Positions 5,146 through 41,237 of a DNA stretch of 64,000 nucleotides are shown here, one piece after another (position 1 is the stretch's first letter; each line of letters begins with the position of its first letter). A program made the position numbers and the translations under genes. The DNA comes from Alphaproteobacteria bacterium (lineage in GTDB: Bacteria; Pseudomonadota; Alphaproteobacteria; RF32; CAG-239), in NCBI GenBank assembly GCA_015062535.1, contig SUUK01000002.1:98724-162723 (forward strand), in the 5' to 3' direction. Below the pieces are notes generated by a model. It worked only from the letters and a program-made list of their open reading frames with translations, searched no databases and had not been told where the DNA came from.

Positions 5146-5805
5146 ATGATGATTATTACAATTGATGGTCCTGCAGCGGCTGGTAAAGGCACTCTTTCTC
5201 AAAAGCTGGCAGACAAATATGGTCTTGCTTATTTTGATACAGGGATGGTTTATAGAGCTGTTGGGCTTTGTATGTTGCTAGGTGGTAAAGATTTGAAAGA
5301 TGTAGCAACTGCAGAGCAAGAAGCAGGGGCTCTTACATTTGCAAAAATGATTGAATTATCTAAACATAGTGATTTTCGTTCTGCAAAAGGTGGAGAGGCG
5401 GCATCAATTGTTTCTAGTTACCCAGGTGTTAGAGCTAGACTTTTGGATATGCAAAGAAATTTTTATAAGAATCCAACATTTGCTGATGGGACTCCTGCAA
5501 AAGGTGTTATTTATGATGGTAGAGATACTGGTACTGTTATTTGTCCTAGTGCAGATATTAAGTTTTTTATCACCGCATCTCCTGAAGTTAGAGCTAGAAG
5601 ACGTTATGATGAGTTTGTGGCAAAAGGTATGGAAACTGAGTATGAAACTGTGCTAAAAGATGTAAAGACTCGTGATGAACGTGATGCAAATCGTAAAGAT
5701 GCACCAATGAAACCTGCAGATGATGCAATTATTTTGGATACTTCTGATATGGGAATCGACGAGGTATATGATGAAGCAGTTAGAATTATTGAAGTAAAAA
5801 AATAA
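5146..5805 (+). CDS. cmk: cytidylate kinase
   Basis: IITIDGPAAAGKGTLSQKLADKYGLAYFDTGMVYRAVG P-loop and Cmk-specific blocks. Confidence 0.93.
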   Translation: MMIITIDGPAAAGKGTLSQKLADKYGLAYFDTGMVYRAVGLCMLLGGKDLKDVATAEQEAGALTFAKMIELSKHSDFRSAKGGEAASIVSSYPGVRARLLDMQRNFYKNPTFADGTPAKGVIYDGRDTGTVICPSADIKFFITASPEVRARRRYDEFVAKGMETEYETVLKDVKTRDERDANRKDAPMKPADDAIILDTSDMGIDEVYDEAVRIIEVKK

Positions 5806-5903
5806 AGTATTTTAGCGTTAAATCAATAAGGTAGCAATTGGGCTACCTTTTTTGTTGCAAAAAATAAAATAAGTGATATTGTTTGTTTTACAAAAATATA
5901 TAT

Positions 5904-6515
5904 ATGTCAATTATGAGTAAAATCAACGTTTACGTCGTACGCCATGGTCAGACAGATATGAATGTCGCTCAAAAATGGCAAGGCAGTGGTTCAGACTGTT
6001 TATTAAACGAAACAGGAAAAGCGCAAGCTTCTAATTTAGGTGAAACAATTAAGCATAAATATATTCGCAAGTTTTATTGCTCTCCTTTGCTTAGAGCAGT
6101 ACAAACAGCCAATATTGTTGCTGATAAAAATTTCACTTATGCTCCAATAACAATCTTAAAAGATTTAAGAGAGTGTGATTTTGGTGATTTTGAAGGTAAA
6201 CCTTATGATGAGGTTGAAGAAAAGTATGGTGATGAAATTCATGATTTTTTCTGGCCTACAAAGGAAACTTGGGGAAAAAAATTTCCAAATGGTGAAAGCA
6301 AAAAGGAAGTTTTTGAAAGAGTAATTAAGGCTTTGAACTACATTGTTAGTTGCCATAAATTTGATTTAGCGGATGTTGGTGTCGTATGCCATGCCGGAGT
6401 TATAAATGCCCTTGCGTGTGGTTTGGGTTTAACTGATGTTTGTTATGACAACTGCAGTGTTTTGCATTTGGTTTTTGATTATGACAAATGTGAGTTTGTG
6501 CACGTGAAAGATTAA
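5904..6515 (+). CDS. histidine phosphatase (phosphoglycerate mutase) family protein
   Basis: VYVVRHGQTDMN...G catalytic RHG motif; start chosen at ATG 5904 (track ORF begins at upstream TTG 5883). Confidence 0.8.
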   Translation: MSIMSKINVYVVRHGQTDMNVAQKWQGSGSDCLLNETGKAQASNLGETIKHKYIRKFYCSPLLRAVQTANIVADKNFTYAPITILKDLRECDFGDFEGKPYDEVEEKYGDEIHDFFWPTKETWGKKFPNGESKKEVFERVIKALNYIVSCHKFDLADVGVVCHAGVINALACGLGLTDVCYDNCSVLHLVFDYDKCEFVHVKD

Positions 6516-6581
6516 AAAGTTAGACCGCTCCTAAAAGGGGCGGTTTACTTTTTGTTAAATAATAATTTTTATATTTAGAAT

Positions 6582-7214
6582 ATGAAAAATGAGTTGTTGA
6601 AATATAATGAATGTTTTGTCTTGAATGGTTTTGAGGGACAAATAGAAGAAAAAAGTGTTTTTTTATATATTGAAAAATGCTCGAAGGTATGTTTGAGCGC
6701 TCCGCATAGTGTTAAAAGTTTTGCAAATAAAACGATAAAAAAGAGCGATTTGTTTACAGGTGCTTTGGTTAGTTTTGTTGGTGAAAAGTTTGGTTTTTCT
6801 TATATTGTTAGAAATAAATTTGTAGATTATAAATGCAGAATTGATGATTTTGTGTTAGAAAATAAGTTAGATAATCATTATTTTTTGGATATTCATGGTA
6901 TGAAGAATAATGATGATTTTGATTTGGCTGTGGGGCTTGGTTATGAAGGTATTGAAGATTACAGAGCAGAATTAGAAAAAATTGATGAATTAGCTTTAAA
7001 ATTTGGTATTAGGTATATTGTAAATCACCCTTGTTACATGGGTAAAGCGGGATTTACGGGTAAATTTCAGCAAAAAAGCGGTAAAAAAAGTATAATGCAA
7101 TTAGAATGGAGTAAAGATTTTAGAGATTTTAATAAAAAAATTGAGATAGTGGAAGAAAAAACAATACCTTTTTTGGTAGAATTTGCTAGGTATATTAATG
7201 AATTGGTAAAATAG
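6582..7214 (+). CDS. hypothetical protein, weak resemblance to N-formylglutamate amidohydrolase/zinc-hydrolase fold
   Basis: 210 aa; motifs LSAPHS and LDIHGM reminiscent of FGase family; weak. Confidence 0.35.
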   Translation: MKNELLKYNECFVLNGFEGQIEEKSVFLYIEKCSKVCLSAPHSVKSFANKTIKKSDLFTGALVSFVGEKFGFSYIVRNKFVDYKCRIDDFVLENKLDNHYFLDIHGMKNNDDFDLAVGLGYEGIEDYRAELEKIDELALKFGIRYIVNHPCYMGKAGFTGKFQQKSGKKSIMQLEWSKDFRDFNKKIEIVEEKTIPFLVEFARYINELVK

Positions 7215-7215
7215 G

Positions 7216-7292
7216 TGGTGCACCCGGCGAGGTTCGAACTCGCAACCTTTGGCGTCGGAGGCCAACACTCTATCCAGTTGAGCTACGGGTAC
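7216..7292 (-). tRNA. tRNA-Arg (anticodon CCG)
   Basis: Reverse complement folds as cloverleaf: acceptor GTACCCG/CGGGTGC+A+CCA, anticodon stem TTGGC/GCCAA with loop CTCCGAC, T-arm GGTTCGAAC; close to E. coli argX-type sequence. Confidence 0.85.
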
Positions 7293-7820: not shown

Positions 7821-8219
7821 TTAGCCAATGGCGCAGAGGTAGACTTTGTCTTGAAAAATCTTCTCTAAATCTTTGCACTTGTTAAGTAATTGTTGTGTTC
7901 TCATGAGTGCAAGGATGAAAAGTACAATCATTGTAATTGTGTATCCCCAAAAATAACCGCTTGATAGCGGAAAAATGAAGAAAACCCACACAAAAAATGA
8001 AAGAGCAAAGAACATTACTCCGAGTGGAACTGCTTTTAGAAGTAGGTTAAGAACTTTTTGATGTGCTTTAAATGCGTCTGCTTCAACAGTGGATTTTGCG
8101 AAAATTGCAAGTCCGTCGTTAATTTTGCAGAAAACATCAAAACCAGCTTCATGTGGTTGTTTTTTCTTGTCAGCAACGAAACGTGTTGTTGCTTTTTCTT
8201 TTAATAATTGAGATGACAT
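7821..8219 (-). CDS. small membrane protein, paralog family member 1 (soluble N-terminus + 2 TM)
   Basis: 132 aa; N-terminal QLLKEKA... then two hydrophobic helices; paralogous to 8338..8730 and 8862..9254. Confidence 0.55.
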   Translation of the reverse strand: MSSQLLKEKATTRFVADKKKQPHEAGFDVFCKINDGLAIFAKSTVEADAFKAHQKVLNLLLKAVPLGVMFFALSFFVWVFFIFPLSSGYFWGYTITMIVLFILALMRTQQLLNKCKDLEKIFQDKVYLCAIG

Positions 8220-8337
8220 ACTGTGTAAAATTTTTGCATAAGATAATAATTTAGTTGTTTGGTCAGTTTAGAATATTTTATTTAAAATGCAATAGAGAAT
8301 TAAATAAAAAAAACCTACCTCTAGGGTAGGTTTTTCA

Positions 8338-8730
8338 TTAGTCTTTTTGGTAAATTATTACTTTACCTTTGCAGACTGCTTCATTAAGGCGAATGAGTTT
8401 TAGCCCGTGAAGGTAAAACCAAATGCAAAAAACGATAAATACTGCGAGCATGATAAGCAGAAGTATTGACAGCGGTTTGTTAAAAGGACCGCAATTTGCG
8501 TAACTAAAAAATCCTACCAAGATGACACTTAGGTTGATGATAAAAGAATACAACATCATTTTGATGAGTTTCTTTGTTTTGATGTAAGCAGAAATTTCTC
8601 GTTGTTTTTTTGCAAAAAGAACAGTGTTCTTCCATTGAAGAACTTGGGTGTATCCCATTTGGTCATGCGCTTTTCCGTATTCTTTTACAAATTCGGATTT
8701 TGCTTTGTTTAATAATTCGTTAGGTTTCAT
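8338..8730 (-). CDS. small membrane protein, paralog family member 2
   Basis: 130 aa; NELLNKAKSEFVKEYGKAHD...WKNTVLFAKKQ then 2 TM; C-terminal ...KGKVIIYQKD. Confidence 0.55.
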   Translation of the reverse strand: MKPNELLNKAKSEFVKEYGKAHDQMGYTQVLQWKNTVLFAKKQREISAYIKTKKLIKMMLYSFIINLSVILVGFFSYANCGPFNKPLSILLLIMLAVFIVFCIWFYLHGLKLIRLNEAVCKGKVIIYQKD

Positions 8731-8861
8731 AATAGTGTATTTAGATAATAATTTGTTTTATGAGCGGGATTATAGCTAGCAAAACAAATTTTTCAATATA
8801 ATTTTTGTAAAAAAAATCCCTATTTGATGTTTTTGATTGTTCAAATAGGGAAAATAGAGTT

Positions 8862-9254
8862 TTAATCTTTAATTTTAATTAGTGTGATTTGATTGTTTTG
8901 GATTTTATTTAAGCGGTAAAGCTTGTATAAACTCCATAACAAAATCAAGATTGGCGTTGCAATTGATAAACTCATTAGAGTAGTTACGTCGGTGTTGTTT
9001 ACCATTGCTAGCGCATCTGTAATGTACGTACAAGTTCCGGCGACAACAGGCAAGACAACAATAATTCCAAGAAGTGGAATTAAATATTGTAGTATAAGCT
9101 CTTCATAAAAAAAGGCTCGCAGAACTTTTTCGTCTGGCGCATAGACGAAGTGATTATTCCAAATTGCAATTGAAGAACAATTGGCTTCGTCAGGGGTTTT
9201 GCCGAACTGTTGTTTGTACTTTTGGTACGCTTTTTCTAATAATTGTTTATTCAT
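8862..9254 (-). CDS. small membrane protein, paralog family member 3
   Basis: 130 aa; KQLLEKAYQKYKQQFGKTPDE...WNNHFVYAPDE then 2 TM; C-terminal ...NNQITLIKIKD parallels paralog 2. Confidence 0.55.
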   Translation of the reverse strand: MNKQLLEKAYQKYKQQFGKTPDEANCSSIAIWNNHFVYAPDEKVLRAFFYEELILQYLIPLLGIIVVLPVVAGTCTYITDALAMVNNTDVTTLMSLSIATPILILLWSLYKLYRLNKIQNNQITLIKIKD

Positions 9255-9374: not shown

Positions 9375-9451
9375 CGGGACGTAGTTCAGCCTGGTAGAGC
9401 GCATGCATGGGGTGCATGAAGTCGGAGGTTCGAATCCTCTCGTCCCGACCA
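9375..9451 (+). tRNA. tRNA-Pro (anticodon GGG)
   Basis: CGGGACGTAGTTCAGCCTGGTAGAGCGCATGCATGGGGTGCATGAAGTCGGAGGTTCGAATCCTCTCGTCCCGACCA; near-identical architecture to E. coli proL; anticodon loop ATGGGGT. Confidence 0.9.
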
Positions 9452-24924: not shown

Positions 24925-25000
24925 GGTCCCATCGTCTAGAGGCCTAGGACGCGGCCCTCTCAAGGCTGCAACACGGGTTCGAATCCCGTTGGGATCACCA
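24925..25000 (+). tRNA. tRNA-Glu (anticodon CUC)
   Basis: GGTCCCATCGTCTAGAGGCCTAGGACGCGGCCCTCTCAAGGCTGCAACACGGGTTCGAATCCCGTTGGGATCACCA; aligns with E. coli tRNA-Glu; anticodon loop CTCTCAA. Confidence 0.85.
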
Positions 25001-25783: not shown

Positions 25784-25801
25784 GCATCACCAATACAAAC
25801 A
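25784..25801 (+). repeat. 18-nt direct repeat copy 2 (ATCACCAATACAAACAGC)
   Basis: Exact match to 24995..25012; followed by terminator hairpin aacagcaggc...gcctgctgtt (25798..25831). Confidence 0.6.
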
Positions 25802-26070
25802 GCAGGCTGAAAAATGCCTGCTGTTTTTTATTATTGAGGAGAGGTATAAGTGTTACTCTTGGAGAGAGGAAGGGGATCCTTTGACCTTGCTTACGTTCGG
25901 AAGGATGACGCTGTGTCGTGTGGTAGAAAAATATTTTTATAAATATATTAAAAATGTAAAAAATATTTTAATTCAACTATTGATTTTATTATATGAAACA
26001 TCCTATATTATACTTGGACGTGGACTGGAACTAAATAATTTGTTTTAATTTTTTATTTAGGAGAAAGTAA

Positions 26071-26460
26071 ATGCCTAGGTACGGAGATAAAACCCAAAAG
26101 GAACTTGATAATTATATAAAAGATTATAAGTTACCAGTTGGACGTGTAAGAACAGGTTTGGTTGCGCCAATTAAGGATTTGAGTCGTAATTATTTTACAA
26201 TGAAAGAAAAACAATTGGATCCAAGCGATCATTTTTTTCATTGTAAGGCTAATTATGAAGCTGCTTCAAGAGGAGCTTATGGAGAAGCAGTGGCTGAAAA
26301 ATTTGGTTATATAAAAGAGCGTTTTGATATGCTAGTCAAAGGTGATAGCAGGGGAGCTTCTGAAGCTGATTTAAGAGCAAATGCAAGAGGTCGTGCAGGT
26401 GCAAAAGCAGGAAAGTCTCTACGAGAAACATGTCCGACGCATCATACAAAATATAAATAA
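26071..26460 (+). CDS. serum amyloid A (SAA) domain protein, bacterial homolog
   Basis: 129 aa; SDHFFHCKANYEAASRGAYGEAVAE ... SEADLRANARGRAGAK ... TKYK aligns with vertebrate SAA [25 protein letters not shown] ... SLADQAANEWGRSGKD ... EKY. Confidence 0.7.
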   Translation: MPRYGDKTQKELDNYIKDYKLPVGRVRTGLVAPIKDLSRNYFTMKEKQLDPSDHFFHCKANYEAASRGAYGEAVAEKFGYIKERFDMLVKGDSRGASEADLRANARGRAGAKAGKSLRETCPTHHTKYK

Positions 26461-26472
26461 ATCGGAGGTATA

Positions 26473-26868
26473 ATGAGCAAACAAGTATTTTCTATTTCTA
26501 GAGTGGTTACTATTTTTATAACAACGATTATATTTTTATTTTTATCTCTTTTTATGGTAATCGATTTTGTTATTGTGTTTCCGATGAACAAATATATTTT
26601 GTTTATCTATGGTATAGACATGATTGTTTGCTTATTTTCTTTGTTAGGAACGATGTTTGTAAAATTTCGTAAAATTTGCTATGTTGTGTTTGTTGTAAGT
26701 TTTGCTATTTACTTAGCAATGTACCATTTTAATATGGCAATTATTGATGAGCATGGTGCAGACAGATGTTTAGATGCCGGAAAAGGTGTTTGGGACTATA
26801 AGGAACATCGTTGTAGGACGACAGATTGTTGGCGCTGGAGTTGGGAAAAAGGCTGTGAAAAAGAATAA
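26473..26868 (+). CDS. hypothetical membrane protein with Cys/Trp-rich C-terminal tail, coupled to SAA-like gene
   Basis: 131 aa; 3-4 hydrophobic helices then DEHGADRCLDAGKGVWDYKEHRCRTTDCWRWSWEKGCEKE; 12-nt gap from upstream gene. Confidence 0.45.
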   Translation: MSKQVFSISRVVTIFITTIIFLFLSLFMVIDFVIVFPMNKYILFIYGIDMIVCLFSLLGTMFVKFRKICYVVFVVSFAIYLAMYHFNMAIIDEHGADRCLDAGKGVWDYKEHRCRTTDCWRWSWEKGCEKE

Positions 26869-27067
26869 TTTTTGCTATTTATGGCTTTATTTGTGTTGAT
26901 GTATTTATAAAAGTTTTGCTTAAAGCAGAAGAAAATCTGAATTTTGTTAAAAGTTACCATATTTCTTCTCTTTTGGCTTAATATAAAATATATTTATTGA
27001 GTTAGAGAACTATTAGTGTATGTAGAATAAATAACGAAACAAGGTGCTCTATTGAGCACCTTGTTTG

Positions 27068-27602: not shown

Positions 27603-28406
27603 ATGCCTACAATACATTTAATGGTTGGTTTTATTGGGTTTGGTAAAACAACAATTGCCAAAGAAATTGAAAGTAAGTTTTCGGCTATTCGTTTTACTCA
27701 TGATGATATTATGCTTGAGAGATATGGGCGTAATCCTGATGATTTTCAGACAAAGTTTAATATAGTTGATGATTATATTAGAAATGAAGCCCAAAAATAT
27801 ATTAAGATGGGGAAAGATGTTATTTTAGATTATGGCTTTTGGTCTCATGATAAGCGTGATGAATATTATAAGTGGGCAAAAGGACTTACTAAAGATGTGG
27901 TTTTTCATGTTGTTTTATGTGATATTAAGGAGGCAAAACGAAGGGTTTTAAGTCGCACAGAAAATGATGATAAAGCTCTTTTGATTGATGAGGGTATTTT
28001 TGATGCTTTGTTAAAACAATATGAACCATGGTATTTTATGGATGATTATCCTGTTGTTTTTCATAATGTAGAGAATAATAAATATATTGGTCAAATTGTT
28101 AAGGTTAAGATTGATAGACCAAAGGGGAGTAAACACCCTAAGTATGGGTTTGAGTATTTGGTTAATTATGGTTATGTACCATATACTAAATCTCAAGATG
28201 GTGAAGAATTAGATGCTTATGTTTTGGGGTTTGATGAGCCTTTAGATGAGTTTGAAGGGCGCTGTATTGGTGTTATTAGACGAATTGATGATAATGATGA
28301 TAAGTTAATAGTTGTTCATGAAGCAATAGATTTAGCTGATGAGCAAATTGAAGAAGAGATAGAATTTCAGGAAAAATGGTTTAAGCATATTTTGTTGAGA
28401 GAGTAG
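27603..28406 (+). CDS. fusion protein: N-terminal P-loop kinase (AAA_33/zeta-toxin-like NTP-binding) + C-terminal inorganic pyrophosphatase-like domain
   Basis: GFIGFGKTT Walker A; C-terminal KVKIDRPKGSKHPKYGFEY...NYGYVPYT...DGEELDAYVLG...IGVIRRIDDNDDKLIVV parallels PPase blocks EIPKGSRNKYE...NYGFIP.T...DGDPLDVLV...IGVLKM.DE.GEDDKIIAV. Confidence 0.55.
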   Translation: MPTIHLMVGFIGFGKTTIAKEIESKFSAIRFTHDDIMLERYGRNPDDFQTKFNIVDDYIRNEAQKYIKMGKDVILDYGFWSHDKRDEYYKWAKGLTKDVVFHVVLCDIKEAKRRVLSRTENDDKALLIDEGIFDALLKQYEPWYFMDDYPVVFHNVENNKYIGQIVKVKIDRPKGSKHPKYGFEYLVNYGYVPYTKSQDGEELDAYVLGFDEPLDEFEGRCIGVIRRIDDNDDKLIVVHEAIDLADEQIEEEIEFQEKWFKHILLRE

Positions 28407-29578: not shown

Positions 29579-30187
29579 TTAGACTGTTAGAACAACTTTT
29601 TTGCGGTTGAAACGTTTAGCGTTTCGTTGGTAGGTTTTGTAGACTATATCTACATCTTGGAAGTTTGCAAAACCTATCCAATGCCAGCTGTTGTGAATTT
29701 TGCCAATTTTACCACCATACTTTTGGCGAAGGATTGTGCAAGCCTTGAAGCTACCAATGTAGGCTATTCTTCCATTTTGGGTGCAACCGTATCTGATATC
29801 TCTTGTGATTGTTTCTGCAAAGTTTAGTACCGCATCTTCAAGGTCATCAAGAGGGACACTGATAACGAGGTTTTTCTTTGGATTGGCAACGATTTTGGTG
29901 ATGTCTGTTGAGAGAGCATAACCTATCCAGTACCAAACATTGCTTATTGCACCGATTTGACCATCAAAAGTATTTTTTAGGTTTTTGCATTGTTTGTAGG
30001 TGCCAATGTATGCAGATGGGGTGTTGCGACCGGTCACAATTATTGTGCCGAAAGCGATAGAGTTGCTTATCATTGCGACAACTTCTTCTATATCGTCAAC
30101 CTCTGATTTTTGGTCAATGTTTTTAAACCACTTTAAGTAGGCGTTGTCTAATTGTTGCAAAAGTTGATCTTTTCTTTTTTGTTCCAT
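29579..30187 (-). CDS. hypothetical protein with internal tandem duplication
   Basis: 202 aa; repeats SAYIGTYKQCKNLKNTFDGQIGAISNVWYWIGYA and IAYIGSFKACTILRQKYGGKIGKIHNSWHWIGFA. Confidence 0.45.
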   Translation of the reverse strand: MEQKRKDQLLQQLDNAYLKWFKNIDQKSEVDDIEEVVAMISNSIAFGTIIVTGRNTPSAYIGTYKQCKNLKNTFDGQIGAISNVWYWIGYALSTDITKIVANPKKNLVISVPLDDLEDAVLNFAETITRDIRYGCTQNGRIAYIGSFKACTILRQKYGGKIGKIHNSWHWIGFANFQDVDIVYKTYQRNAKRFNRKKVVLTV

Positions 30188-40205: not shown

Positions 40206-41237
40206 ATGAAGCAAGAATTACGGACTAATGAAATTTCTGTAATTATGCCTATTTATAAAACTAAAGTTGAGCATTTGCGCTTGGCAATTCAAAGCGTTTT
40301 GGCTCAAAGTTTTAGTGATTTTGAGTTTATTATACTAAATGATAGCCCTCAGGATAAACGTTTGAAGGAGATTGTAGATAGCTTTGCAGATAATCGTATT
40401 AAATATTTTGAAAATGAGGTTAATCTTGGAATTGCAAAAAGCTATAATAAGTTGCTTGATTTGGCTAAAGGTAAATATATTGCGCTTATGAATCATGATG
40501 ATGAAATGAAAAAAGAGCGCCTTAAAAAACAATATGAATTTTTGGAAAAAAATAGTGATGTAGGGCTTGTTGGAACTGCTTATAAAAAGTTTGGTGAGGT
40601 AAATAGGTTTAAAAATATATTGTGCCCGAAAAGTCATGATGAGATTTTGGCGATGTTTTTATTTAAATCTCCAGTTCATCATCCTACTATCATGATGCGA
40701 GGTGATATTATCAAAAAATATAATATTCGTTATAACGAAGAGTTTATTAGTCTAAATGACAGACAGCTGTGTTGGGAGTTTAGTAAATATTCTAGGGTAT
40801 CGAATCTAGATGAGGTGTTGTATAAATATCGGTTTCATCCGGATATGACCTCTAAAAAGATGAAGATGGATATTAGAAAAGAAAGAGCGAAGTTTCATAA
40901 GCTTTGGTTTGAGTATAATGATATAAACTTGAGTGATGATGAAGTTGATGTCTTTGATAATTATGTGACTTTTGGTAGAGCAAAAATTAAGGATAAGAGT
41001 GTTATTAAAAAATCTGTTGCAGTGCTTGATAAGTTGGTTGAGATAAACGAATCTAAAAACTTATTAAATAATGTTGCTTTTAGGAAAGTTTGTGCAGGGT
41101 ATGCTAGGAAACGTTGTTTGAATGCGATTTTTTGCGGATTATTGAATATTAAAGATATTATCAATTCTACAAAACTTCCGATGAAGAAAAAAGGGCAGAT
41201 GCTGTTTTTTAATACTGTTTTTGGGTGGAGAAAGTAG
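40206..41237 (+). CDS. family 2 glycosyltransferase
   Basis: ISVIMPIYKTKVEHLRLAIQSVLAQSFSDFEFIILNDSPQD; ATG 40206 (track ORF from 40167). Confidence 0.8.
   Translation: MKQELRTNEISVIMPIYKTKVEHLRLAIQSVLAQSFSDFEFIILNDSPQDKRLKEIVDSFADNRIKYFENEVNLGIAKSYNKLLDLAKGKYIALMNHDDEMKKERLKKQYEFLEKNSDVGLVGTAYKKFGEVNRFKNILCPKSHDEILAMFLFKSPVHHPTIMMRGDIIKKYNIRYNEEFISLNDRQLCWEFSKYSRVSNLDEVLYKYRFHPDMTSKKMKMDIRKERAKFHKLWFEYNDINLSDDEVDVFDNYVTFGRAKIKDKSVIKKSVAVLDKLVEINESKNLLNNVAFRKVCAGYARKRCLNAIFCGLLNIKDIINSTKLPMKKKGQMLFFNTVFGWRK

Follow-up and report, generated by a model that had tools for sequence, protein, structure and literature searches.

What does a bacterial gene for a serum amyloid A (SAA) domain do when it is followed closely, on the same strand, by a gene for a small Cys-containing membrane protein? 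Such a pair lies in the 64,000-nucleotide stretch of gut alphaproteobacterial DNA analysed here (the window), and an earlier note had proposed that the SAA gene is eukaryote-like, horizontally acquired and host-mimicking. We consider it likely, at a probability of roughly 0.78, that the two genes instead form a toxin-immunity operon for conflict between bacteria, of the prok-SAA/Imm-SAA kind reported by Burroughs, Nicastro & Aravind (eLife 2025; PMC12419801), whose study is cited throughout for selected passages and its Prok-SAA sequence set. Both predicted open reading frames were found, 12 nt apart and each with its own ribosome-binding site. The features of the first gene are as follows.

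26071..26460, + strand: putative stand-alone prok-SAA (lipocone) toxin gene, 129 aa, leaderless (ORF call, PF00277, SAA-like model)
26060-26063: GGAG ribosome-binding site of the toxin gene
26173..26412, + strand: SAA/lipocone core, aa 35-114 (conservation in 24 homologs)
26239-26241, 26317-26319 and 26368-26370, + strand: predicted catalytic residues H57, E83 and D100, respectively
26377-26394, + strand: sNxxGR motif, A103-R108 (A103-N104-A-R-G107-R108)
26242..26433, + strand: stretch between the invariant cysteines C58 (26242-26244) and C121 (26431-26433) (alignment)

The proposed homology to SAA was borne out at the levels of profile, sequence and predicted fold. The Pfam SAA family (PF00277) matches the toxin ORF at 62.1 bits (E=7.4e-17; aa 35-114 on profile positions 12-91 of 102), well above its gathering cut-off of 30.8 bits, a family profile search of the PDB returned SAA3, SAA1 and SAA2 at 7e-19 to 1e-17, and BLASTP aligned mouse SAA3 with 37% identity over 78 aa. 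In a fold search the AF2 model (pLDDT 77.8) matched SAA crystal structures only (mouse and human), at target-normalised TM-scores of 0.72-0.77 and rmsd values of 1.8-2.5 A. The predicted helices span residues 32-47, 53-65, 69-90 and 94-112, with short ones at 117-120 and 125-128, reproducing the four-helix core and short fifth C-terminal helix of prok-SAA lipocones. Over residues 30-129 the toxin matches MBE6462763.1, a member of the published Prok-SAA set (Prok-SAA.tsv), with 100% identity; that entry is listed with a hydrophobicity of -0.82 (PMC12419801), in line with the soluble character of the family. Searches of NCBIfam, PHROGs and PADLOC returned zero matches for either protein of the pair.

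Active lipocones are defined in PMC12419801 by a His(H2)/Glu(H3)/Asp(H4)/sNxxGR set, and this set is present in the toxin protein: H57, E83, D100 and G107 are invariant in the alignment of 24 homologs, with A103 and N104 conserved in at least 90%. C58 and C121 are likewise invariant, and may form a disulfide that links helix 2 with the C-terminal tail. A metal site built from H57/C58...C121/H124/H125 was considered and rejected, since conservation of H124 and H125 does not extend to subclasses B and C. Read directly from the sequence, the N-terminus is hydrophilic and therefore carries no signal peptide, in agreement with the earlier note; the C-terminal KY that it had described is in fact followed by a further lysine, the protein ending in ...KYK.

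The second gene would supply the immunity function.

26473..26868, + strand: putative Imm-SAA-type immunity gene, 131 aa, starting 12 nt past the toxin stop codon
26464-26468: GGAGG ribosome-binding site of the immunity gene
26479..26730, + strand: three transmembrane (TM) helices, aa 3-34, 40-59 and 63-86 (AF2 model, pLDDT 88.6)
26734..26865, + strand: predicted periplasmic immunity domain, helix 88-102 plus four beta-strands (AF2 model, Cys alignment)

In the AF2 model the strands of this domain comprise residues 106-108, 113-115, 121-123 and 127-129. Its four cysteines, invariant among 15 aligned sequences, are spaced as C99-x14-C114-x4-C119-x8-C128, a pattern without the CxxxxxC spacing previously attributed to the protein, and two more, C53 and C69, lie within TM helices. 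Where three to four TM helices had been anticipated, three were found and a fourth was not. An N-in/C-out topology is predicted from the positive-inside rule, the basic residues being K3 and R10 at the N-terminal end and KFRK in the second loop. Pfam contains no match to the partner protein. Imm-SAA is described in PMC12419801 as an alpha helix and four strands with four absolutely conserved Cys, in the architecture 'Prok-SAA: T6SS, MuF, TM+[TM+TM+]Imm-SAA'. The partner displays each of these traits, namely a 1-or-3-TM anchor (here three), the helix, strands and conserved Cys, and adjacency to a prok-SAA gene across the 12-nt gap, with the understanding that this match compares a predicted model with the paper's verbal description rather than with a reference sequence. 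Its relatives also have one or three TM helices, and the family is narrow, with 16 matches in a word-indexed search and 89 cluster representatives in 1.84 billion.

The relatives of the pair also bear on its role. The exact motif FHCKANYE has 93 matches in genome representatives, all of them uncultured gut Alphaproteobacteria, and every one of the 80 related loci kept comes from a gut, rumen or faecal MAG, which upholds the suggestion of a host-associated alphaproteobacterium. A membrane-plus-Cys-domain ORF lies downstream of about 75 of the 81 non-redundant SAA ORFs; 57 of the 81 are followed by the 4-Cys motif and a further 14 by a 2-Cys variant. No gene families other than the SAA and membrane-Cys families recur across 88 loci, so that the proposed two-gene module holds. 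Gaps between the two genes are small in relatives, a 14-nt overlap being frequent, and the architecture of the partner varies together with the toxin subclass (19/21, 18/20 and 13/18). Several SAA paralogs often coexist in one genome, arrays of toxin-partner pairs are present, and the genomic setting changes, with the module found behind an efflux pump, behind an Mla operon or elsewhere. In these relatives the SAA domain is a C-terminal tip on common N-terminal modules that are alternatively fused to Tlde1_dom, Glyco_hydro_108 or Phage_lysozyme/Pesticin tips, and in sibling cassettes the partner of a lysozyme-like tip is a lipoprotein. Variable tips on conserved modules are a trait of polymorphic toxins (sensu Zhang et al. 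2012); the relatives display it, while the window copy is a bare tip. Swappable tips, a cognate membrane partner and paralog arrays together point to inter-bacterial conflict rather than host mimicry.

We propose a model where the leaderless 14.7-kDa toxin would be exported and become active in the periplasm of neighbouring cells, cutting a phosphate-linked head group off a lipid carrier or phospholipid and thereby blocking envelope synthesis. Lipid head-group cleavage or exchange is suggested here by analogy with TelC of Streptococcus intermedius, the template for this mechanism, which is the sole characterised lipocone toxin, cleaves lipid II and is active only outside the cytoplasm (PMC12419801). 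The toxin disulfide between its invariant Cys probably forms only outside the cytoplasm, which would leave the toxin harmless in its producer. Imm-SAA would be anchored in the inner membrane and expose its disulfide-stabilised domain to the periplasm, where it may bind and neutralise toxin arriving from sister cells.

Comparison with known systems places the pair within a described kind. Relative to prok-SAA/Imm-SAA as presented in PMC12419801, it has the same domain, conserved residues and two-gene layout, and nothing essential differs in the passages compared, except that the delivery marks given there (PAAR/T6SS, MuF) are absent from the stand-alone window copy. The pair is thus of an already published kind, including the MBE6462763.1 sequence, and the increments added here are modest. 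The TelC-TipC system belongs to the same superfamily according to that study and likewise features an extracytoplasmic toxin with immunity outside or at the membrane, but TelC represents the prok-TelC family, comes from a Gram-positive organism and relies on LXG/T7SS delivery, and the TipC fold is unrelated; TelC was not among the fold-search matches of the toxin model. PAAR-Rhs proteins of E. coli O157:H7 (e.g. RhsD z0651) carry a PF00277 C-terminal tip (PMC7216683), an arrangement in which an SAA domain likewise ends a secreted bacterial toxin. They are, however, large Rhs proteins of the T6SS, delivered by a covalently attached PAAR, as opposed to a 129-aa stand-alone protein, and the likeness considered here is one of domain.

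The surroundings of the pair suggest that it is mobile.

25787..26921, + strand: mobile module block, leader plus both genes (blastn)
25797..25826, + strand: terminator-like hairpin closing the upstream hydrolase gene, at the 5' edge of the module
25933..26070, + strand: AT-rich 5' leader/promoter region
25980-26009: promoter-like site TTGATT-18-TATATT
24925..25000, + strand: tRNA-Glu(CTC), upstream of the module

By blastn, the 1.1-kb block 25787..26921 is 99.1% identical to positions 5717-6848 of a related locus, L009, as compared to 81.4% for the flanking efflux-pump region (AcrB-like, ACR_tran), and the pair travels as a unit. We read this difference as a sign of recent transfer, strong selection being the alternative that such a pattern would also fit. 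Toxin genes usually diverge more than housekeeping flanks, and it counts against a toxin reading that the module is here the more conserved part. In L009 the leader is reused ahead of a different pair, a small ORF and a multi-TM gene, and a copy of the hairpin recurs behind the module. Ahead of the module, a tRNA-Glu is found in L001 and L009 (both CTC) and in L010 (TTC anticodon), L002 and L003 show only a blastn match to the tRNA region of the window, and the DNA between tRNA and module differs among genomes. Rfam returned only tRNAs in the window and zero matches in the conserved 5' leader.

The export step counts against the toxin reading, as the protein has neither a signal peptide nor a trafficking domain. 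Pfam and NCBIfam detected no PAAR, VgrG, LXG, MuF or comparable domain in the toxin protein, leaving it without a recognisable link to secretion; no secretion apparatus was recognised among 16 window ORFs scanned against Pfam, and no secretion genes among the recurrent neighbours in 88 loci. An ABC-ATPase cluster present at 10 loci was rejected as a linked exporter, since it consists of MlaF-type and other generic ABC proteins. The N-terminal modules of the relatives and their Tlde1 and GH108 tips are absent from the window by tblastn, a weak GH108 match at 40830-41087 having been rejected because it falls inside a family-2 glycosyltransferase. In the longer gut-alphaproteobacterial relatives, these short modules carry the motifs 'DSYGVDH..FS.RDEL.YQ...YPQYGTNFWG..NNYGFG' and 'NMSLRDELQTRFDL.ELN.L', the same ones that bear the Tlde1, GH108 and lysozyme tips; they have no Pfam match, and no description of them occurs in the passages of PMC12419801 consulted. 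A literature search found no report of T6SS in RF32, which we take to be the GTDB order to which these gut Alphaproteobacteria belong. A tentative and rather doubtful extension of the model is that leaderless prok-SAA proteins leave the cell by an undescribed route, marked in longer relatives by the N-terminal modules, and that the cassette and its reusable leader are exchanged between species at a tRNA-Glu hotspot.

Other explanations account for parts of these observations. Host mimicry, in which an SAA taken from an animal host would be secreted to act in the gut on host SAA receptors, HDL or retinol pathways, draws on the target-normalised TM-score of ~0.75 to mouse SAA3 and human SAA1, on the gut association of all carriers found here, and on retinol binding by mouse SAA3 in the matched structure 6py0. 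The toxin indeed shares with vertebrate SAA (SAA1, SAA3) its fold (rmsd ~2 A over ~91 columns), ~31-37% identity and the FH..NY.AA.RG and AN..GR motifs. Yet animal SAA has a signal peptide, which the toxin lacks, and canonical vertebrate SAA has neither Cys nor an immunity partner, while the toxin has, in addition, a helix near its N-terminus (aa 6-16) and the two invariant Cys. The checks for foreign origin also came out negative: GC of the module is at background (0.327 vs 0.320 for the window), and the toxin nests in the bacterial part of a neighbour-joining tree (computed without support values). Its mean identity is 34.7% to SAA of other bacterial phyla vs 29.8% to animal SAA, compared to 42.8% between other bacterial SAAs and animal SAA, making the window protein's branch the bacterial one least like animal SAA. 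Contrary to what had been supposed, bacterial homologs are moreover not rare, the published Prok-SAA set spanning many phyla, and PMC12419801 infers SAA transfer in the opposite direction, from bacteria to early Metazoa. As host mimicry further offers no role for a dedicated membrane partner whose domain lies in the periplasm, and leaves the swapping of the SAA domain with peptidoglycan-targeting toxin tips unaccounted for, we regard it as very improbable.

A housekeeping envelope enzyme, whereby the lipocone would remodel lipid head groups or carrier lipids of its own cell while the membrane partner positions or regulates it, is in keeping with the intact catalytic residues, with the metabolic nature of most lipocone families (PMC12419801), and with window neighbours that include an LPS gene (CMP-KDO-synthetase-like cytidylyltransferase, PF02348) and glycosyltransferases. 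The variable genomic context, several paralogs per genome, fusions to polymorphic-toxin N-terminal modules, a narrow partner family and lateral exchange as suggested by 99% vs 81% identity all argue against it, and we deem it improbable. The same low standing is given to a lysis-type cassette, be it a prophage remnant or a device for programmed release, where a cytoplasmic enzyme cleaving wall precursors would be freed by a holin-like membrane protein. An enzyme without export signal and a small 1- or 3-TM partner would suit such a cassette, and a fusion of a PG-binding domain to prok-SAA does occur among virion genes of one phage contig; but none of the 88 loci has phage genes at its flanks, neither window protein has a PHROG match, and 2.9 million viral contigs yielded just 2 distant matches. 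In addition, a folded, four-Cys extracytoplasmic domain that co-varies with toxin subtype fits binding and immunity better than a pore, and the lysozyme-like siblings are paired with lipoproteins, not holins.

We therefore retain the prok-SAA/Imm-SAA toxin-immunity operon as the preferred reading. With prok-SAA, Imm-SAA and the MBE6462763.1 sequence all published in 2025, nothing is new at the level of kind, and the insight that a bacterial toxin domain gave rise to animal serum amyloid A likewise dates from that work (PMC12419801). The pair from the window is nevertheless a handy test object from an abundant but uncultured gut lineage, offering two small genes, intact catalytic residues and an immunity domain of 44 residues. 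A positive toxin result would also be relevant to host SAA, for which an enzymatic, antibacterial role has been proposed.

The two reading frames that the earlier note had described are present in the window, and we identify the pair as belonging to a toxin–immunity kind that was defined computationally and is already published. The operon layout is compact, and the neighbours are housekeeping genes:

upstream of the pair: TetR-family regulator, membrane-fusion protein and AcrB-like efflux pump, assigned by synteny with L001, a related locus in another genome
upstream of the module (5' leader plus both genes, block 25787-26921): tRNA-Glu
26071..26460, + strand: serum amyloid A (SAA) protein, 129 aa, GGAG-type ribosome-binding site
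26473..26868, + strand: membrane partner, 131 aa, GGAG-type ribosome-binding site, 12 nt after the SAA ORF
neighbour of the pair: Abhydrolase_2 esterase
downstream: CMP-KDO-synthetase-like cytidylyltransferase (PF02348), adenylate kinase, LepA, glycosyltransferases and anaerobic ribonucleotide reductase NrdD

The SAA homology proved genuine, with PF00277 (Pfam SAA) matching aa 35-114 of the first protein over profile positions 12-91 of 102 (E=7.4e-17, 62.1 bits, the curated threshold being 30.8). BLASTP aligns mouse SAA3 at 37% identity across 78 residues, and a profile of 24 homologs retrieves mouse SAA3 and human SAA1/2 from among the PDB sequences (7e-19 to 1e-17). The AlphaFold2 model is all-helical (pLDDT 77.8, pTM 0.77) and adopts the SAA fold: in a Foldseek search of the PDB only SAA structures gave meaningful scores (6py0, 6pxz, 4q5g, 4ip8, 4ip9; target-normalised TM-score 0.72-0.77, rmsd 1.8-2.5 Å, 30-33% identity), the next match having E=3.7. 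The N-terminus is hydrophilic and thus holds no signal peptide, and the C-terminus reads ...KYK rather than the KY of the earlier note.

Burroughs, Nicastro and Aravind (eLife 2025;14:RP108061, PMC12419801) define a lipocone superfamily including an SAA-Wnt clade, which holds the bacterial 'prok-SAA' and animal 'Met-SAA' families; their account presents prok-SAA as the toxin tip of polymorphic toxin systems and Met-SAA as obtained from bacteria before the cnidarian split from other Metazoa, and refers to a 2023 study of the deep roots of SAA. The family-defining residues described there (His in helix 2, Glu in helix 3, Asp in helix 4 and an sNxxGR motif) have intact catalytic-type counterparts here in H57, E83, D100 and A103-N-A-R-G-R108, with H57, E83, D100 and G107 invariant and N104 nearly invariant in the homolog alignment. 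C58 and C121 are invariant in the bacterial branch and missing from canonical vertebrate SAA. The kind is already known and the window's own sequence is in the published set, as the 100-residue domain of MBE6462763.1 in the Prok-SAA table is identical to residues 30-129. An earlier in-silico study found PF00277 at the C-terminus of E. coli O157:H7 PAAR-Rhs proteins (PMC7216683).

The partner, without a match in Pfam and NCBIfam searches, is predicted to form three TM helices followed by a helix (88-102) and four short strands (pLDDT 88.6). The proposal of a multi-TM, Cys-rich protein stands, with three rather than four TM helices and with the spacing C99-x14-C114-x4-C119-x8-C128 replacing the pattern first given; all four cysteines are invariant. 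K3 and R10 lie near the N-terminus and KFRK in loop 2, and from this charge distribution, the odd number of TM helices and the four invariant cysteines we infer that the C-terminal domain is periplasmic. At 26818-26823 the window's partner has a one-residue insertion (T116-T117, 'RTTDCW'), where all 14 aligned homologs and L009, the window's closest genome match, read 'R[TAI]DCW'. Three further proteins (P0110, P0116 and P0120) are variants of this immunity (Imm-SAA) domain: in two it ends a protein of ~290 aa that opens with ~230 mostly hydrophobic residues, which suggests several additional TM helices, and in one a single TM is followed by three tandem copies alternating with another Cys-rich unit.

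The pairing extends well beyond the window. At least 70 homologs of the SAA protein in a large protein collection all carry PF00277, and the exact motif FHCKANYE occurs 93 times among species representatives, in two or three copies in several genomes. In a scan with a single genome for each GTDB species, all 80 loci kept belong to uncultured Alphaproteobacteria, from human-gut, ruminant gut or rumen, and chicken faeces where sources are named; L009 is itself an uncultured 'Alphaproteobacteria bacterium' MAG (99% protein identity). When all ORFs of 88 loci were clustered, only two families recurred, SAA (in 86 loci) and that of the small membrane proteins (in 67 + 14), which bears out the two-gene module. 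Across contigs with close and distant homologs, the SAA gene sits behind an efflux pump, behind an Mla operon or elsewhere, and in every case has a 125-130-aa ORF behind it. The start of the downstream ORF ranges from -23 to about +100 nt relative to the stop codon, a 14-nt overlap being very common; this ORF encodes one or three TM helices and the C-terminal consensus C[LM]D.G.[VI][WY]D...CR.DC..W....GC. A four-cysteine domain follows 57 of 81 non-redundant SAA ORFs and a two-cysteine variant 14. In this set toxin subclass co-varies with partner architecture: the window's 'CPTHH..YK' class pairs with 3 TM + 4 Cys (19/21), the 'RV.GIN' class with 1 TM + 4 Cys (18/20) and the 'C[PS].NP' class with a multi-TM protein bearing a 2-Cys tail (13/18).

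The SAA-seeded BLAST cluster also drew in proteins lacking an SAA domain, which share with the longer SAA proteins N-terminal modules such as 'DSYGVDH..FS.RDEL.YQ...YPQYGTNFWG..NNYGFG' and 'NMSLRDELQTRFDL.ELN.L'; the modules have no Pfam match. The alternative C-terminal domains are Tlde1_dom (a T6SS L,D-transpeptidase-like effector domain), Glyco_hydro_108 with PG-binding domains, and Phage_lysozyme/Pesticin. Seven loci (L052, L027, L028, L031, L048, L066 and L077) hold arrays of such toxin genes; every gene has a neighbouring small ORF for a lipoprotein or membrane protein, and secretion genes are absent from the vicinity of the arrays. Such an organisation marks a polymorphic toxin system with tips that attack the envelope from its periplasmic face, and the SAA domain is one of those tips; by alignment, the window protein starts where the toxin domain of the long forms starts ('YGD.T.K.LD.Y'), a bare tip.

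This repertoire disfavours the proposal of the earlier note, in which the protein could be a host-derived SAA serving host mimicry. GC is flat along the window at about 0.32, and the module (0.327 against 0.320) is without compositional sign of foreign origin. For an alignment we took 14 Met-SAA, 23 prok-SAA of other lineages and 9 sequences of gut Alphaproteobacteria from the PMC12419801 tables. The mean identity of the window protein is 29.8% to animal SAA (maximum 34.4) and 34.7% to the other bacterial SAA (maximum 41.4), against 42.8% between canonical animal SAA and those same bacterial proteins (maximum 55.2); BLASTP gives 63 bits ungapped to a bacterial SAA of another lineage and 41 bits to mouse SAA3. 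The neighbour-joining tree, which carries no support values, places it deep within the bacterial part; even so, the pattern is opposite to that expected from recent host-to-bacterium transfer.

A housekeeping lipid enzyme is likewise disfavoured by the varying context, the paralogy, the fusions to toxin modules and the narrowness of the partner family (only 89 cluster representatives among 1.84 billion). A lysis cassette, combining a leaderless enzyme with a holin-like protein, would explain the absent export signal and has a parallel in a PG-binding and SAA fusion on a phage contig, but the 88 loci show no phage context, there is no PHROG match, and the conserved part of the partner is a folded domain that tracks toxin subtype. 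The fusion itself (L089, an IMG/VR phage contig, 3925-4566; 213 aa) lies between tail-like genes near a terminase-like gene, and its prok-SAA domain may be a virion-associated or lytic enzyme.

What is new beyond the published family is modest: a cassette identity contrast, the tRNA-Glu site, leader reuse and the RTTDCW insertion. Block 25787-26921 is 99.1% identical to L009, a species-representative genome, where the flanking efflux-pump region reaches only 81.4%, and the corresponding values for L001 are 86% and 70%, which suggests a recent exchange of the cassette among related species. A tRNA-Glu precedes the module in the window, L001, L009 and L010; L002 and L003 match the window's tRNA region (blastn), and the content between tRNA and module differs among genomes. 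Beyond the SAA module of L009, at 8011-8906, its 5' leader is reused (92% over 138 nt) by a second cassette, in which a 96-aa ORF ('MPRNSKNF...') is followed by a multi-TM ORF of 135 aa; this may be another toxin–immunity pair. Elsewhere in the window, three tandem paralogous ORFs of ~130 aa (7821-9254, - strand; 7821..8219, 8338..8730 and 8862..9254), each with a soluble N-terminal half and two TM helices, sit between tRNA-Arg (7216-7292) and tRNA-Pro (9375-9451) and resemble a further small array of paralogs beside tRNA genes. A 202-aa ORF (29579-30187, - strand) without a Pfam match consists of two internal repeats, 'GTYKQCKNLKNTFDGQIGAISNVWYWIGYA' and 'GSFKACTILRQKYGGKIGKIHNSWHWIGFA', and a 267-aa protein (27603-28406, + strand) fuses AAA_33 kinase-like and inorganic pyrophosphatase domains. 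GC skew, at 0.08 to 0.60, is positive in all 1-kb bins of positions 1-64000; the window thus appears to belong entirely to one replichore, and its strand asymmetry is unusually strong.

As a toxin–immunity pair, the two proteins could work along the lines of TelC, described in PMC12419801 as the only characterised lipocone toxin, a lipid II-cleaving enzyme that works exclusively outside the cytoplasm. By analogy with TelC and the family, the toxin would cleave a phosphate-linked head group off a carrier lipid or phospholipid in the target-cell periplasm, where the cognate partner Imm-SAA, through its extracytoplasmic four-cysteine domain, would intercept it. We further propose that a C58-C121 disulfide may tie helix 2 to the C-terminal tail, which would be consistent with a toxin active in an oxidising compartment yet harmless in the producer cytoplasm. 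The SAA protein has no leader or trafficking domain, its relatives' N-terminal modules were not found in the window, and neither a Pfam scan of 16 window ORFs nor the set of recurrent neighbours showed a secretion gene; the 14.7-kDa toxin could be carried by a T6SS or by a different machine whose genes lie elsewhere. The remaining interest of the pair lies in the delivery route of such a leaderless toxin, and in its membership of the prok-SAA toxins, a family known from computation alone.
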